Shown here in pieces: positions 1,006 through 22,723 of a DNA stretch of 64,000 bases. The stretch is taken from NCBI GenBank assembly GCA_012365435.1, contig GCA_012365435.1_4518.1; one strand, given 5' to 3'. The stretch is from a phage. The notes under the pieces were generated by a model that saw only the letters and a program-made list of their open reading frames with translations, ran no database searches and was not told the DNA's origin. Position numbers and translations under genes: made by a program. Position 1 is the first letter of the stretch; each line of letters starts with the position of its first letter.

Positions 1006-4000
1006 ATGGCTACATTAAAACAGATACAATTTAAAAGAAGCAAAGTAGCAGGAGTTAATCCTACTGCAGCACAATTAGCCGAAGGCGAATTAGCGATAAA
1101 CTTAAAAGATCGAACTCTTTTTACTAAAGATGACCTCGGTAATATTATTAGCCTAGGCTTTGCTAAGGGTGGGGATATTAACGGTAATGTAACTCAAAAC
1201 GGCGATTATACACAAACTGGAAAATTTAATTTAATTGGTCCGCAAATTGTAGCAAGCGGTGGATATATTGAGTTTAATTATCGTACGACTGGAAGCGGCT
1301 CGTGGTCTGGTCAACACGCTGCAAAAGCTCCAATTTTTGTAGATTTGAGCTCCGCTACTTCTACATCTGAATATAATCCTATAATTAAACAACGCTTTAA
1401 AGATGGAACTTTTTCATTAGGTACTTTAGTTTCTGAAGGTTCATTAAAATTCCATTACATTAATGAGGCAGGTGAATCTAAATATTGGACATTTGCGCGC
1501 TCAGGTAATTTTCAAGTTGATTCTGGTAATTTATTAGTATCTGGTGGGTATTTAGTCGCTCAGAATAATATTGAAACAAGAACAGGTTCTTTGATTGGTC
1601 CACAGGTTATTACTAAAAATATCAACTTGAGCTCTAAATCTTGGGCTACTAACACTGATATAGCTTATGACGTTGTTTCATTACCGACTTGGCAGTATAC
1701 TCCAACCGAAACGGATTTGGATACTAATGGTATAAACTACCTTCGTAAATTCCGCGGACATGTTTCTTCTGCTATTTTCCATGAAGTTGCTGATGCTCGT
1801 TCAGGTAAACCACAGAATATTTCGTATTGGACGGGACGTAATGCCGAAGTTTATCAATGGTCTTATACCACAGATGGGCGTATGTCTGTTGCTAATTCGA
1901 TAGGTATAGGTCTTGCTGATGTTGGTGACCAAGGACGTTATCCATTGGTTTCGTTTGGTAAAGGTATTGCAATTGGTGACAATGATACTGGTATTAAATG
2001 GGTTCGTGACGGTGTTATTGATTTGATTGCTAATGGTATTTCGTCCGGCACAATAATCAGTAATGGTATTAATAGTACAAAGAAATTGATGGTCGGTTAT
2101 AGTCGAGATTCTGGTTCTACTTGGGATTACCCAAATAACAACCAAGCAATGTTTACTGCGCGTACCGATGTTGATGGTAATAATAACGGCGATGGACAGA
2201 CTCATATCGGTTATAGCAGCAATGCCAAGATGTATCACTATTTCCGCGGTACAGGTCGTATGTCCGTTAGTATGGGCGATGGACTTCTTGTTGAGCCTGG
2301 CATTTTAGATATTAAAACCGGTTCTAATAGCGTTGCTATTAGAGCAGACGGAACAATTAACTCCACCCAACGTATTTCAATGCGTACGGGCTTGTTTTTA
2401 AATGGTGATGATAATACCAATGCTTTGTCATTTAAAGCGCCTACAGGTGTTGACGGGACAAAAACCATTACCTGGGATGCAGGTACTCGTAATGGTCAGA
2501 ATAAAAATACTGTAACCATTAAAGCATGGGGTAACTCATTTAACGCTGAAAAGGGCAATAGAGAAACTGTATTTGAAGTATCAGATTCACAAGGTTATTA
2601 TTTTTATGCTCAACGTACCAACCCGGCTTCTGGTGAAACAGTAGGTCCGGTTAACTTTAAATTTAACGGAACTGTCGAAACAGGCAATATCATAGGCCTT
2701 GGTAATATAAGTGCCTCCGGTACAGGTTCTTTTGGTGGCAATGTTACTATGTCTAACGGTTTGTTTGTCCAAGGTGGTTCTTCTATTACTGGACAAGTTA
2801 AAATTGGTGGAACAGCTGATGCATTAAGAATTTGGAATGCTGAATATGGCGCAATTTTCCGTCGTTCAGAAAGTAATCTTTATATTATCCCGACTCTTAA
2901 AGATGCTGGAGAATCAGGCGGTATAAGTAATCTTAGACCATTGATAATAGAACTGAACACTGGCACAGTTAAAATGTCGCATGATGTTCATTTAGGAGAT
3001 TCTGGATCTGGTACAGGATTATTACAAGTAAGTAATAGTCTTAAAACTATTAAAATGATATGTCCAGTAACTATTAATGAACGTAATGCAGCGCTTACTC
3101 TAGATTCTCCTTCATCTTCTTCTGCTAATTATTTACAGGGTTCTAAAGCTGGAACTAGATCGTGGTATGTTGGTCTCGGTGGCTCTGGAAATGATTTATC
3201 AGTTTATAGTCAATCTTATGGACATGGTCTTGTTATAAGCGATAATTTCGTGTCAATTAGTAAACCTCTTAAAGTTGGAAATGCACAACTAGGAACTGAC
3301 GGTAATATTACTGGTGGTTCTGGTAATTTTGCCAACTTAAATAGTACAATTGAATCACTTAAAACTGATATTGTCTCAAGTTATCCAATTGGTGCTCCGA
3401 TTCCTTGGCCTACTGATACACCTCCTGAAGGTTATGCCATAATGGAAGGTCAAACATTTGATGTCGACTTGTATCCTAAGTTAGCTGCAGTGTATCCTTC
3501 CGGCGCTCTGCCTGATATGCGTGGTCAAACTATCAAGGGTAAACCATCTGGGCGTGCTGTATTAAGTACAGAAGCAGACGGTGTTAAGTCACATAGCCAT
3601 AGTGCAAGTGCATCAAGCACAGATTTGGGTACTAAGACCACTTCTAGTTTTGATTACGGTAGCAAAACGACTTCAAGCTTTGATTATGGTACTAAAACCA
3701 GTAATACTACTGGTAACCATAGCCATACAGTGAGTGGTACTACGAGTACGGCAGGTAATCATAATCACAGAGACGGCCGTCGATTTAACCCCAGTATTTT
3801 TAAAGATACTTATCAATATGGTTATACAAGCTCAGGTCAAAATACCTGGGGTGTACAAGGCTCAGTAGGTATGTCTATGGGGTGGTTAGCTAATACCAGT
3901 ACAGATGGTAATCATAGCCATACTTGGTCAGGAACCACGAGTACTACAGGTAACCATGCTCATACAGTAGGTATTGGCGCCCATGCTCATACAGTGGGTA

Positions 4001-4155: not shown

Positions 4156-4707
4156 ATGAAACTCTATCACTATTATTTTGACACTAAAGAATTTTACAAA
4201 GAAGAAAATTATAAACCATTAAAAGGCGTAGGATTTCCGGCTCATTCAACACCAAAAAAACCTTTAGTCCCTAAAGAAGGCTATGCTGTTATATTTGACG
4301 AACGCGAGCAAGAATGGGTATATGTTGAAGACCATCGTGGAAAAACAGTATGGACTTATGATAAGCAAAAAATTGTTATTGACACTCCAGGTGCTCTTCA
4401 AAATGTTACTACAGAAGAACCTGGCGAATTTGACATTTGGACCGGCGACGGGTGGAAGGAAGATGAAGCATATAAACGCGTAGTTCAACGTGATAAGAAA
4501 ATTCATGAACTCTATAAATTATTCAGTGTTTTAAGTTCTCTTATTGACGCAGAGGTTGCTAATAGAGAAGAAAAACGAAAATTTAAAGAGCTCAAAAAAT
4601 TCTTTGCCCTTTTAGAAAAACATGAACATCTTGGCGGTGAATTCCCTAAATTCCCTGACCTTGAAAACAAATCTATTGTCAAAGCGATTATAAATATCTT
4701 TAAGTAA
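4156..4707 (+). CDS. 38: Tail fibre assembly chaperone gp38 (T4 type)
   Basis: 183 aa, N-terminus MKLYHYYFDTKEFYKEENYKP matches T4 gp38; follows gene 37. Confidence 0.8.
   Translation: MKLYHYYFDTKEFYKEENYKPLKGVGFPAHSTPKKPLVPKEGYAVIFDEREQEWVYVEDHRGKTVWTYDKQKIVIDTPGALQNVTTEEPGEFDIWTGDGWKEDEAYKRVVQRDKKIHELYKLFSVLSSLIDAEVANREEKRKFKELKKFFALLEKHEHLGGEFPKFPDLENKSIVKAIINIFK
4689..4696 (+). promoter_or_regulatory. T4-type late promoter (TATAAATA) for holin gene t
   Basis: Exact TATAAATA inside 3' end of gene 38, about 20 nt upstream of t ATG and AGGAGG RBS. Confidence 0.5.
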
Positions 4708-18634: not shown

Positions 18635-18648
18635 AGGGCCGAAGCCCT
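18635..18648 (-). terminator. C(UUCG)G hairpin/terminator at end of upstream operon
   Basis: agggc-cgaa-gccct, UUCG loop in - transcript, followed by UUUUUGCUUUAG. Confidence 0.45.
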
Positions 18649-19073
18649 TATTTAAATTTAATTTTCTGAAGTGCATCAATTGCAGCCAAACGCCCTTGTT
18701 CACTTTTAACTGTAATGACCACATCACCTGATACGATCACCGAGCCGTCAACAAATTCTATAGAGCCTTTTTTGAAATCGACAGCTGTATCTTGTTCCTG
18801 AACTTCTTCAAAGAATTTAAATTCTGCACCATAAAGCAGAATATCACCTTGCATACTATGAATAGTTCGGCCATAATCGCCTACGGCTTCTACAGCAATA
18901 ACCGAAACACCGTAACCAATCATCTCTTCCACAATAAAATCTTTGGACAATAAAGTAGTATGCAGATTAGTATTAAGACGTTTACCAGTCGTATTAAGAA
19001 TTCTCAAGAAATTATCTTCTTGACCTTTGATAATACGATATTTCTTACCAACTTCAAAACCTTTAAAAGCCAT
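18648..19073 (-). CDS. Hypothetical protein (141 aa)
   Basis: ORF track; first gene upstream of 39. Confidence 0.5.
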   Translation of the reverse strand: MAFKGFEVGKKYRIIKGQEDNFLRILNTTGKRLNTNLHTTLLSKDFIVEEMIGYGVSVIAVEAVGDYGRTIHSMQGDILLYGAEFKFFEEVQEQDTAVDFKKGSIEFVDGSVIVSGDVVITVKSEQGRLAAIDALQKIKFK

Positions 19074-19257: not shown

Positions 19258-19668
19258 TTATTCCTTAAAATGTGCTTTCAACATTTGATACAAAGACCAT
19301 GCCTGGTCGTTATTTTTGATAGTAATCTTCATCACCGGAAATTCAGACAATTCATCAAGTTCTCCAGAGTCTTGCTCTTCAGACGCTTGATATGGATTTC
19401 CAACTTCGTCAAAGAACTCTGCTTCATTCGTGGAGAGCCAGATAAAGTTTTCATCAAGGATATCACCGCCTGTTGCGTATCCAACCATGCCAGTAGATGT
19501 CACAATTTTAGTAGGACGACCAAGATGGTCAACATCTAATACTTTAAATGGTTCCATGCCAAGACGTCGTGCATAAATCCCATTATCAGTGTGGTCTTTA
19601 ATAAACTCTTCTTGGGCACGTTTATCTTTAAATTGGTACCATGAGTTAACGCGGAATTTATTAGCCAT
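19258..19668 (-). CDS. Hypothetical protein (about 136 aa)
   Basis: ORF track; start moved to ATG overlapping upstream stop (TAATG). Confidence 0.5.
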
Positions 19669-19895
19669 TAGTAAGTTTCCTTCCAATAAGTTGTACCGTT
19701 TTCAGTGATTTCACGGAAGATACCATAGATAGGCATTTCATCGCCAAGTTTTTCGTAAACGTAAACCACTTCGGTGTAGCATAAAAATTCGGTCCAGTTT
19801 TTCTGTACAACAACTAAATCAGGATTAAACAGAACATCTTCAAACTCATCGATGTTTGAATCAGTAGTTACGTTTTTAATGATTTGACGTTTCAT
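19668..19895 (-). CDS. Hypothetical protein (75 aa)
   Basis: Start at internal ATG preceded by AGGAG; the track start would overlap the promoter. Confidence 0.45.
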
Positions 19896-19952: not shown

Positions 19953-20477
19953 TCATTTTAGCAAAATAAAATCAACTTGTTCTGCCAATGAACGTCTAAA
20001 CATTAATTGACAACTTCCGAGGATGAAATCAGGTGCTTCATAGACCGCGATGTAGTATCCTTTAGCTTTCAAGAGTTCAACATCTACCTGGTCATCAAAC
20101 CATGCATAAACCGCATCAACACTTTCAAATCCAAAATAGAACCCTTGAGCCCAATCTTCACTCAATTCAAATGTGTGCTCAATTCTATAGTATCTTAAGA
20201 TATTTTGTTCAAGGAGTTTGTCTTCATTTACTGTAGGACGATTAGGGACATTATAGTTGTCGCCGTGATGGTAGAAGTTACCTGAGAGTATTCCATGTTT
20301 ATCAAGGAACTCCCATGTTTCTTCAGAGTTGTCGGTGCCCGACCAACCGTACGGCGAGCGAGGTTCTTTATTCCAAGAGGTTTCCCAAATTCTGACGGCT
20401 TTACCGTCTTCGATAGCAATTCCCGGTAATGATTCACGTTGAGTACAAAAACTACGTTCTACGCGGTAAACTAACAT
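19953..20477 (-). CDS. Hypothetical protein (174 aa)
   Basis: ORF track. Confidence 0.5.
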   Translation of the reverse strand: MLVYRVERSFCTQRESLPGIAIEDGKAVRIWETSWNKEPRSPYGWSGTDNSEETWEFLDKHGILSGNFYHHGDNYNVPNRPTVNEDKLLEQNILRYYRIEHTFELSEDWAQGFYFGFESVDAVYAWFDDQVDVELLKAKGYYIAVYEAPDFILGSCQLMFRRSLAEQVDFILLK

Positions 20478-20536
20478 ATTATTCTCCTCTGGTTGATATG
20501 GTTATAATATCAAAACCGGAGGAGAAGTAAACAACT

Positions 20537-20956
20537 TTATGCGAAAGCAGCTGGGCTATATTTTTTGATTTGGAATTCAGGAACTACCATGAACTGACCA
20601 GCGAAAACAATGTTATAAAGCTTAACACCATCTTCTACCCAACGGTCGCTAATAAATCCGGCGATTTGCTTAGTTTTCCATGGCGTTCCATCAGTTGCCG
20701 CAGCAATAGTGAATTCATGGTCTTTTTCAACAGAAACTGATCTGCATAGTCCCCATTTGAACGCTTTTTCTTCTGGTTCAATGAATTGACTTTTAACGTA
20801 ACCAATGTTACCATCGGCGTCACGAACTTTAACTTCGTTACGTCCAAAAACTGGATCACTCACAGAAAGAACTTCAACCAACTTCCCGGCAACTTTAGAG
20901 CGAGAAGCAACAGATACATATACGTAATCACCTGTAGAGAGATTTACAATATTCAT
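20537..20956 (-). CDS. Hypothetical protein, paralogue family member A
   Basis: 139 aa; shares SRSKxAG.LVEV and GFISD.WVEDG.KLYNIVF motifs with the next two ORFs. Confidence 0.55.
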   Translation of the reverse strand: MNIVNLSTGDYVYVSVASRSKVAGKLVEVLSVSDPVFGRNEVKVRDADGNIGYVKSQFIEPEEKAFKWGLCRSVSVEKDHEFTIAAATDGTPWKTKQIAGFISDRWVEDGVKLYNIVFAGQFMVVPEFQIKKYSPAAFA

Positions 20957-20965
20957 AATAATTCC

Positions 20966-21421
20966 TTAAGCTTTACGAGGAGACACATAGCGAGTGATTT
21001 CAGATTCTTTAACAACTCGGAAGTCACCTAAGAATACGATATTGTATAACTTTTCACCATCTTCAACCCATTGGTCACTAATGAAGCCGCACATAGTATC
21101 AGTTTTGCTTGGATAACCGTATTCATCGATGAAGTCAAATTCTTTATCAGTCTGGAATTCAACACCTTTACACAAGGCCCATTTGAACTGTACATTAGGT
21201 TCAGTAGAAGCAAAATGAGCACTCACATGAGTTTCCAAGAATTTAGGACTTACGTAAGCGTACTGAGTTTCAGTTTTTCCGGAACTAGGAATGATTCGAA
21301 CTTTAACTTCTTTAACACGTCCAGTACCATTAGTACGAAGTCCGACAACTTCAACCAGACGACCTGCAGCTTTAGAACGAGATGCAGATGATACACGCTT
21401 AATTTCACCAATAGTAATCAT
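20966..21421 (-). CDS. Hypothetical protein, paralogue family member B
   Basis: 151 aa; same motifs as member A. Confidence 0.55.
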   Translation of the reverse strand: MITIGEIKRVSSASRSKAAGRLVEVVGLRTNGTGRVKEVKVRIIPSSGKTETQYAYVSPKFLETHVSAHFASTEPNVQFKWALCKGVEFQTDKEFDFIDEYGYPSKTDTMCGFISDQWVEDGEKLYNIVFLGDFRVVKESEITRYVSPRKA

Positions 21422-21485
21422 AATTTCTCTCTCTCTTTGTTTAAGTTGAATTCATTATACTCCATCCGTCCTTGGATGTACAACA

Positions 21486-21980
21486 TTAATTAAGGATATT
21501 AACCACAGCACTACGTGGAACTACACTAAAATCACCTGCATGAACAACGTTCAGAAGTTCAACACCGTCTTCAATCCATTGGTCAGTTACCCATCCATTT
21601 ACTGGACCAGCGAATGGGCGTCGAATTGAAACATATTTACACAACAAATCAGTAGGCTCAATAGGCTTAATCAGAGTACCGTACATACAAGTGATATCCA
21701 TATCAATACAGATATCTTTAACGGGTTCTACTTCTTCAATCAACAGTTCAAAGTCGGTGCTTGGAAGGGCGGTAGTAGAAATTGTACCATATGAATTTTT
21801 AATTTCTAAGAATAACCAAGGGCCTTCAACTTGTTTGATGAAGTTAACAATAGTGAAACTATTACCTTGAGTGGCACCTAAAATTTCACAAAACTTTTCA
21901 TAAGCTCGCACTGAAGCACCGTACCAGTTGATTTGTTTTTCATCTTTCAGGATGTAAGTAGCCGTGGTATTGATATTCAT
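21486..21980 (-). CDS. Hypothetical protein, paralogue family member C (divergent)
   Basis: C-terminal GWVTDQWIEDGVELLNVV.AGDF.VVP related to members A/B; start moved to ATG at 21978-21980 (track start is TTG). Confidence 0.5.
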   Translation of the reverse strand: MNINTTATYILKDEKQINWYGASVRAYEKFCEILGATQGNSFTIVNFIKQVEGPWLFLEIKNSYGTISTTALPSTDFELLIEEVEPVKDICIDMDITCMYGTLIKPIEPTDLLCKYVSIRRPFAGPVNGWVTDQWIEDGVELLNVVHAGDFSVVPRSAVVNILN

Positions 21981-22045
21981 AATGTTTTCCCGTTTGGTTA
22001 AGATAGAAAGATTATACTCCAACCATCCTTGGTTGTAAACTGTTT

Positions 22046-22723
22046 TTATCGCTGTTTTACACTTAACGGGTCAGGATTCTCAGGGACATCTTCAAGGCCA
22101 AGCGCGTACCGCTGAGCATATTTTAACATCAAAATATCTTTAGCACAATCATGAATACTATCATGGGCAACGAATCCTTTTAGCGTACCCATCGGTAATG
22201 GACACATACTTAATCCTCGTGTCAACGAGTAAGCTTCGATTGCCGTACGAATATCGCGTTGAGCCCAGAATTTAACCGGTTCTAATTTATCGGTATCAAT
22301 ATCTGGTTCAAGAACACCTTCATCACGATAGAGATCACGAATCAAATCGACCAAGATCGGGAAGTCAAAGCTCATACCACGGCACCACATCTGTGATTTC
22401 CATTGGTCAACTTTATTAGCTCGGCAATAATCTAAAAAGATTTTAATGCCTTCAAGCGTAGTGACATCGTCTTCAGACGGGGCCAAGTTTTTACGTGCTT
22501 CTGCTGACTGTTCTTTCCACCATTTCATAGTGGATTTAGCAAAAACTCGCTTCCCTTTCTGAGAAGCTAAATTAAATTTAATTCGCTTACCTCGTTGAAC
22601 AAGTTCTTCAAATGATTCAACAACTTCAGGGTCGGAATTATATGCAATAACCGCAAGGTCAATAACAGCCGCTTTTGATGTATTGCCGAATGTTTCAAAA
22701 TCTATAATAACATCAGTGCTCAT
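22046..22723 (-). CDS. dexA: Exonuclease A DexA (DEDDh 3'-5' exonuclease)
   Basis: 225 aa; N-terminal DFETFG exo motif; length and position match T4 dexA. Confidence 0.75.
   Translation of the reverse strand: MSTDVIIDFETFGNTSKAAVIDLAVIAYNSDPEVVESFEELVQRGKRIKFNLASQKGKRVFAKSTMKWWKEQSAEARKNLAPSEDDVTTLEGIKIFLDYCRANKVDQWKSQMWCRGMSFDFPILVDLIRDLYRDEGVLEPDIDTDKLEPVKFWAQRDIRTAIEAYSLTRGLSMCPLPMGTLKGFVAHDSIHDCAKDILMLKYAQRYALGLEDVPENPDPLSVKQR

Follow-up and report, generated by a model that had tools for sequence, protein, structure and literature searches.

What kind of genes are the three small open reading frames (ORFs) that lie side by side next to dexA in the early region of a T4-like phage, and what has shaped them? 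We addressed this question in a 64,000-nucleotide stretch of phage DNA (NCBI GenBank assembly GCA_012365435.1, contig GCA_012365435.1_4518.1; hereafter the window), where an examination of the letters alone (the sequence-only reading) had noted three consecutive minus-strand ORFs of 139, 151 and about 164 amino acids (aa) and had proposed that they form a locally amplified family diversifying under selection. All three ORFs were found as described (genes A, B and C; Table 1), and the two protein motifs quoted for them were exact, letter for letter. They had been placed upstream of dexA, which holds solely in plus-strand numbering: all of these genes are on the minus strand and dexA has the higher coordinates, so the ORFs lie downstream in the direction of transcription. 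We read the region as a motB.1-motB-motB-paralog cluster encoding three small, all-beta, two-domain early proteins, and we put the probability of this reading, taken jointly with the expression and mechanism proposed below, at roughly 75%.

Identity of the three genes

Genes A and B share a motif near the N-terminus (SRSKVAGKLVEV in A, SRSKAAGRLVEV in B), and all three share one near the C-terminus (GFISDRWVEDGVKLYNIVFAGQFMVV in A, GFISDQWVEDGEKLYNIVFLGDFRVV in B, GWVTDQWIEDGVELLNVVHAGDFSVV in C). The core of the latter, G-x-[IV]-[ST]-D-x-W-[VI]-E-D-G-x-x-L-x-N, consists of residues that show little or no variation in family alignments. By BLASTP, A and B were 43% identical over their full length (E = 4e-32), and the similarity of C to these proteins was confined to its last 29-36 residues (55% identity with A across 29 aa, E = 2e-10; 44% identity with B across 36 aa, E = 3e-10). 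The pairwise similarity is therefore far beyond chance and bears out the earlier view of the ORFs as paralogs in the variable early region. A six-frame scan of the whole window found the core motif at these three places only, and together with hidden Markov model searches of all stop-to-stop ORFs it revealed no family member in the window beyond A, B and C. At the DNA level, the motif core forms a three-copy direct repeat of 68 nt with 68-71% identity and spacings of 429 and 508 nt. Recent gene conversion between A and B was considered and rejected, as even their best-conserved stretches share just 68-76% DNA identity.

All three proteins passed the 25-bit gathering cut-off of the Pfam family PF17613 (motB), with scores of 77.2 (A), 132.4 (B) and 35.3 (C) bits. 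B aligned to this profile end to end, and C covered profile positions 78-153 only, the C-terminal half. Among the PHROG families, A (E = 1.3e-51) and B (E = 7e-65) matched phrog_1671, annotated as 'MotB-like transcriptional regulator', and C matched phrog_2333 over its full length (E = 2.7e-82). C was also 46% identical, at 98-99% coverage, to clusters of 143/144-aa MotB.1 proteins from Tequatrovirus, and this full-length similarity places it in the MotB.1 or phage LSm-like-fold family. The features of MotB proper ('Category 1') were likewise found, namely an N-terminal KOW-like barrel with the SRSKxAGxLVEV motif and an early minus-strand position in the dda-dexA ... cef-goF-39 region of the Tevenvirinae.

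A block of 1.7 kb was 95-98.5% identical to many Mosigvirus (RB69-like) genomes, and the window is from a Mosigvirus, an RB69-like T-even phage. The annotated order in RB69 is dda, dexA, motB.1, motB, 'RB69ORF010c similar to motB', motB.2, cef, goF, 39.2 and gene 60plus39; because the same genes occur in the same order, C corresponds to motB.1, B to motB and A to RB69ORF010c. Phages SA79RD and PECP20 have the same layout as the window. B is 96% identical to the annotated RB69 MotB, and A, the ortholog of RB69ORF010c, is 97% identical to it, with the same length and position and no difference of note. We conclude that B is the ortholog of T4 MotB, that A is an old, shortened second MotB copy and that C is MotB.1, which combines the common C-terminal barrel with an unrelated N-terminal domain.

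These assignments agree with earlier work. RB69 was reported to have two motB genes, one motB.1 and a 29-aa peptide, and MotB homologs were split into MotB proper and MotB.1-like proteins with a common C-terminal domain and different N-termini (Patterson-West et al. 2021; PMC7827196). The three-member arrangement of RB69-like phages is thus already in the literature, and the family is already cataloged (PF17613, PHROGs 1671 and 2333). B resembles T4 MotB in its two-domain layout, in its SRSK...GKLVEV and DQWVEDGxKLYN motifs and in its location in the corresponding dexA-cef early region, but the two proteins are only about 50% identical and their C-terminal domains differ in charge (-5 in B versus +1 in T4). 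Gene order also differs, being dexA-motB.2-motB.1-motB-cef in T4 and dexA-motB.1-motB-A-motB.2-like-cef in the window.

An in-frame TTG at 22022 would extend C to 178 aa (21486-22022). We rejected this start in favor of the ATG at 21980 because the TTG precedes the -10 hexamer belonging to the promoter-like site at 22039-22011; as the closest database cluster to C (181 member sequences) also has a length of 164 aa, the 164-aa form is likely. For B, several close relatives annotate motB as 172 aa (3067-3585 in compared stretch L002, 2067-2585 in L009), because in these genomes the promoter region ahead of the true ATG happens to be open (MLYIQGWMEYNEFNLNKERK...). This upstream frame is closed by a stop codon in the window (compared stretch 21422-21451), which supports the 151-aa start.

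Table 1. Features of the motB region, in coordinates of the window
Feature	Position	Strand	Description
Gene A	20537-20956	minus	139 aa; second, shorter MotB paralog, RB69ORF010c type
Gene B	20966-21421	minus	151 aa; motB ortholog
Gene C	21486-21980	minus	164 aa from ATG; motB.1
C-terminal shared motif in A (GFISDRWVEDGVKLYNIVFAGQFMVV)	20582-20659	minus	
C-terminal shared motif in B (GFISDQWVEDGEKLYNIVFLGDFRVV)	21011-21088	minus	
C-terminal shared motif in C (GWVTDQWIEDGVELLNVVHAGDFSVV)	21519-21596	minus	strands 2-4 of barrel
Early-promoter-like site	22011-22039	minus	TTTACA-17-TATAAT, 11/12; between dexA and C
Early-promoter-like site	21454-21482	minus	TGTACA-17-TATAAT, 10/12; between C and B
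dexA	22046-22723	minus	
motB.2-like ORF	19953-20477	minus	next gene after A
RNA hairpin	20482-20526	minus	downstream cluster boundary; pairs the Shine-Dalgarno GAGGAG (20484-20489) of the motB.2-like gene

Domain architecture and charge

AlphaFold2 models, made with alignments of family members, predicted that B and C each consist of two confident all-beta domains and a disordered linker (mean predicted local distance difference test score of 80.5 for B and 78.4 for C). In B, a KOW/SH3-like N-terminal barrel that contains SRSKAAGRLVEV (residues 1-62) precedes a linker (65-81) and the C-terminal barrel (83-151). C was modeled as a beta-rich N-terminal domain with one helix (about residues 1-84), a low-confidence linker that contains DMDITCMYGTLIKP (about 86-107) and a five-strand C-terminal barrel of the MotB type (about 109-164). 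In both models the common motif forms strands 2-4 of the five-strand C-terminal domain. A has two domains as in B, with a short linker. The three proteins carry very different charges: the N-terminal domain of B is strongly basic (+8, isoelectric point 10.7) and its C-terminal domain acidic (-5), A has a net charge of 0, and C is acidic throughout (net -9, isoelectric point 4.5).

Published HHpred analysis of T4 MotB assigned a KOW domain to the N-terminus and an OB-fold (cold-shock or eIF5A-type) to the C-terminus. The predicted N-terminal domain agrees with the KOW assignment, and the OB-fold label gains no support from the predicted structures. Foldseek gave full-length alignments of B to tandem KOW and tandem Tudor proteins. 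Identity to the small SH3-like beta-barrels in question (KOW of NusG, RfaH and Spt5; tandem Tudor of 53BP1 and UHRF1) was just 7-20%, and SH3-like barrels of unrelated functions (Tudor, PWWP, BAH and PsaE) scored as well as KOW, so the resemblance describes a fold class and is not evidence of shared function or membership. Searches for sequence-level matches to solved structures gave nothing significant (best E = 0.26-1.4).

Like T4 MotB.1 (the 'Category 2' of Patterson-West et al. 2021), C has a C-terminal barrel of the shared kind, but it carries an additional linker insert of about 20 residues (DMDITCMYGTLIKP). Within this linker (window 21657-21704, about residues 93-108 of C) we observed the brief motif (I/F)D(M/F)D(I/V)xx(M/T)Y(G/V)xx(I/V)(K/E)P. 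It is missing from the 143-145-aa T4-type MotB.1 proteins; in MotB.1 variants of about 180 and 250 aa it stands at the very N-terminus, and hybrids with a MotB head and a MotB.1 tail have it in their linker. From this distribution, the motif behaves like a short movable cassette.

The N-terminal domain of T4 MotB.1 was described as LSm-like, a bent five-strand antiparallel sheet related to GoF and Frd.2 (Kim et al. 2025). Alignment of the N-terminal domain of C with the GoF of the window (19258-19686) or with a 141-aa ORF (18648-19073) by hhalign was not significant, and a profile search of 1.84 billion cluster representatives did not reach GoF or Frd.2 by sequence. The sole hint of such a link was a weak PHROG cross-hit of the 141-aa ORF to phrog_2333, the MotB.1 family (E = 3.8e-4).

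Expression of the cluster

The early-promoter-like sites before C and before B are 78% identical to each other across 45 nt, and a promoter is annotated in phage SA79RD at the place that matches 22011-22039. C would be transcribed from its own site, of the sigma-70 type, and B and A would share the second one; given such promoters, all three proteins would be made in the first minutes of infection. A begins 9 nt past the stop codon of B, and its Shine-Dalgarno sequence AAGGA overlaps that stop codon, suggesting that A is probably co-transcribed and translationally coupled with B.

Proposed function

T4 MotB is an abundant early protein that is toxic on over-expression. It binds both host DNA and modified T4 DNA tightly and without sequence preference, co-purifies with H-NS and StpA, and alters the H-NS footprint; part of the H-NS regulon is de-repressed, with regulon members making up about a third of the 75 host genes that it up-regulates, and its presence doubles the burst size (PMC6070864, PMC7827196). 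The suggestion made from the sequence alone that the family acts in host interaction fits these published data on DNA binding and altered H-NS footprints. By analogy, and with moderate confidence, we carry the function of T4 MotB over to B.

We propose that B uses its strongly basic, KOW-like N-terminal barrel to coat DNA regardless of sequence and thereby shifts how H-NS and StpA sit on DNA, which would relieve silencing and modestly raise phage yield. The charge pattern points to the N-terminal barrel of B as the predicted DNA-binding part and would leave the conserved C-terminal barrel without an assigned role. In all three proteins the C-terminal barrel ranges from neutral to acidic; it is therefore presumably not the part that binds DNA, and it may instead be a partner-binding or self-association module. 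A, with a net charge of 0, would bring another N-terminal activity to the same partner, with weaker or different nucleic-acid binding, and C (net -9) would bring yet another, possibly RNA binding. The proposed outcome, relief from H-NS action, is the same as for T7 gp5.5 and T4 Arn, but those proteins bind H-NS directly, whereas T4 MotB associates with H-NS only when DNA is present (PMC7827196).

Several observations weigh against this reading. The published experiments concern T4 MotB, to which B is about 50% identical, so that transfer of function is plausible, not certain. The C-terminal domain of T4 MotB is about neutral (+1) and not acidic, which makes the charge argument for the DNA-binding domain indirect, and the authors of the T4 MotB work considered that either domain could bind DNA, terming the C-terminal one an OB-fold. 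The full-length Foldseek matches of B were weak (best E = 8.8e-4, TM score about 0.3), and the fold searches gave no indication of which domain or residues were matched. Deletion and amber mutants of T4 motB.1 had no laboratory phenotype, and MotB.1 left an RNA reporter unaffected (PMC12152347). Finally, the promoter-like sites are consensus matches only, and their number in the region was not above that in shuffled controls; the promoter assignments rest, for this reason, on position and mutual similarity.

A tentative extension, to which we give a small chance, is that the three proteins are adaptors acting on one host target. B would contribute a basic KOW-like head, A a neutral KOW-like one and C an acidic LSm-like one, and the C-terminal barrel would be a docking or hetero-association module. 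Candidates for the common target include H-NS/StpA-DNA filaments or the Rho/NusG silencing machinery. If this were true, domain swapping in the family would amount to the re-targeting of one conserved 'anchor'.

Distribution and evolution

A tblastn search with B as query found homologs in 771 phage records, every one from a T4-like phage of enterobacteria; the whole C-B-A block is present in 153 phage records (at least 80% coverage). The family is narrow: a profile search of the cluster representatives gave 25 clusters at 50% identity, of which those with names are MotB or MotB.1-like. Copy number ranged from one to three per sampled genome, with three members in Mosigvirus and in RB9 (Tequatrovirus RB3), two in T4, in Bp7 (Dhakavirus) and in VR26 (Gaprivervirus, in which MotB.1 has a duplicated N-terminal domain), and one in Klebsiella phage Biddle. 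A shares 41-48% identity with every MotB that we compared (35% with the Klebsiella phage protein) and falls outside the clade formed by B and the MotBs of T4, VR26 and Bp7, which spans four genera. This divergence and branching point to an old duplication of A and B.

We estimated the ratio of nonsynonymous to synonymous substitution rates (dN/dS) for Mosigvirus orthologs by the pairwise Nei-Gojobori method. Among pairs with informative dS, the ratio was 0.06-0.14 for A, 0.06-0.15 for B and 0.06-0.14 for C, with the exception of B versus PECP20 (0.30); for dexA and dda it was 0.00-0.04. These values, which are gene-wide and would remain compatible with a few positively selected sites, indicate that A, B and C are under purifying selection slightly weaker than that on dexA and dda. 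Positive selection was also considered as an explanation and left no sign in the pairwise ratios, two values of 0.56 being uninformative (dS below 0.04).

The variation in the family is instead mosaic, arising from exchange of whole genes or domains and not from point diversification. MotB.1 proteins whose N-terminal parts are quite dissimilar have C-terminal barrels with 72-88% identity, and some hybrids combine a MotB-type head with a MotB.1-type tail (P0059, P0083). The family thus evolves modularly, with domains and whole genes exchanged between genera under purifying selection.

Three further observations concern such exchange. In RB9 (3001-3903 of the compared stretch, against window 20537-21421), B and A are 90% identical to those of the window at the amino acid level, with dS of 0.39 and 0.53. 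The flanking genes of RB9 are more diverged (dexA 69%, motB.1 56%, motB.2 43%), with dS of 1.5-1.9 or, as for dexA, saturated; the B+A pair was probably exchanged between the Mosigvirus lineage and a Tequatrovirus lineage. VR26 (2156-2908 of its compared stretch) encodes a 250-aa MotB.1-like protein in which two tandem MotB.1-type N-terminal domains precede the C-terminal barrel, with two profile domain hits at positions 15-124 and 43-183. Four database proteins from short contigs of 1.1-3.8 kb (P0148, P0149, P0151 and P0152) combine halves of different types: the N-terminal half of a B-type or T4-type MotB is followed by a C-terminal half of the A type, or the other way round. These may be products of unequal recombination between tandem paralogs or assembly chimeras.

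Of the interpretation offered by the sequence-only reading, the paralogy stands and host interaction is plausible, but a recent amplification under diversifying selection is not supported by these data. We consider it improbable that the genes are a recently amplified family under positive selection, encoding anti-defense or host-range proteins caught up in an arms race. Several features do favor such a family: the genes lie in an early region that is mosaic and non-essential, the family is very small and restricted to phages, N-terminal domains are swapped among its members, the B+A pair has apparently moved between genera, and MotB works against H-NS, which silences foreign DNA (PMC7827196). 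However, the informative dN/dS values are low (only B versus PECP20 exceeds 0.15), A and B are 43-48% identical with A outside the MotB clade of four genera, as expected of an old duplication, and the three-gene block is conserved in the 153 records noted above. The phenotypes in T4 are also mild, with a 2-fold change in burst size for motB and none for motB.1. The MotB literature cited here does not report an anti-defense role, and the sole link to one is that silencing of foreign DNA by H-NS may be regarded as a defense.

Alternative explanations of function

The KOW-like N-terminal barrel of A and B might instead mimic the KOW domain of NusG or RfaH, with Rho, RNA polymerase or ribosomal protein S10 as its target. 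In that case H-NS-silenced and prophage genes would be de-repressed because Rho/NusG-dependent silencing is disturbed, not because DNA is coated, and the LSm-like C would act on RNA. Rho inhibition also de-represses prophage genes, and the genes up-regulated by MotB include prophage genes; in addition, mutants of the adjoining goF are known for overcoming rho alleles, and HHpred gave KOW for T4 MotB. However, the KOW resemblance is not specific, given the equal scores of other SH3-like barrels, T4 MotB binds DNA tightly and requires DNA for its association with H-NS, and the T4 transcriptome is hardly altered in a motB knockdown. We therefore regard this explanation as very improbable, and we continue to favor DNA coating by B.

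Least probable of all is that A is a redundant, decaying duplicate and C a domain-shuffled by-product, neither functionally distinct from B: A has lost most of its linker and all net positive charge, most sampled T-even genera have two family members and a Klebsiella phage one, and T4 motB.1 mutants lack a phenotype, but A is intact, its dN/dS of 0.06-0.14 (dS reaching 0.53) indicating purifying selection, and is kept in both Mosigvirus and RB9-like Tequatrovirus, and C is intact in the window and its closest relatives, with its C-terminal barrel conserved across variants with different N-terminal domains.

MotB.1 in the T4 and RB69 reference genomes

In the T4 reference genome (NC_000866.4), motB.1 encodes 119 aa ending in GWVTDQWIGRWR before the stop codon and contains one extra G (ATTGGAAGATGG versus ATT-GAAGATGG); most of the C-terminal barrel is missing as a result. 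Two re-sequenced T4 genomes (MT984581.1 and KJ477684.1) are without the extra G and encode a 143-aa MotB.1 that has a complete C-terminal barrel of the MotB type. This comparison was of positions 4222-4666 of the NC_000866.4 stretch (L001) with positions 350-781 of the MT984581.1 stretch (L011) and with the KJ477684.1 stretch (L012), corresponding to 21486-21600 of the window. About a dozen more records of T4, T4T, RB55 and RB59 matched a 558-base query with 557 bases. The reference T4 MotB.1 is thus probably a truncation caused by one extra base. A 2025 study of MotB.1 obtained the gene by synthesis, cited NC_000866.4 coordinates and reported a 13.8-kDa monomer. As 13.8 kDa fits 119 aa, the plasmid-borne protein tested in that study was probably the truncated form.

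The RB69 reference motB.1 (AY303349.1; 1947-2443 of the compared stretch, L003) has two 1-nt insertions relative to window 21486-21980. The gene is consequently spread over three frames and is annotated as a 132-aa motB.1 and a 29-aa ORF, RB69ORF012c, which is the only member of 'Category 3' in Patterson-West et al. 2021 (PMC7827196). The 29-aa peptide is thus the tail of a broken motB.1, and the insertions are either sequencing errors or real mutations. Given the truncation in the T4 reference and the broken gene in RB69, MotB.1 merits re-examination as a full two-domain protein.

Downstream boundary and neighboring genes

The motB.2 homolog beyond A gave no convincing alignment with the MotB family and no Pfam match. 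The hairpin at the boundary between the two genes has a predicted folding energy of -19.9 kcal/mol (z = -4.15), and none of 200 shuffled sequences folded as well. A rho-independent terminator is annotated after A in SA79RD. We rejected an intrinsic terminator at this place because the terminator scan was negative and the hairpin is without a U-tract and covers the ribosome binding site. We also noted a promoter-like site on the minus strand (TTTACT-16-TATTAT, 20531-20504) whose -10 hexamer is inside the hairpin loop. With this arrangement, transcripts reading through from motB would mask the ribosome binding site of the motB.2-like gene, and transcripts from the proximal promoter would be without the 5' arm of the hairpin. 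Promoter-dependent translational control is known for several T4 genes, and the arrangement resembles it.

The early region of the window contains a second pair of paralogs on the minus strand, GoF and the 141-aa ORF beside gene 39 (RB69ORF005c type). Both match phrog_622 (E = 5e-39 and 3e-21, respectively).

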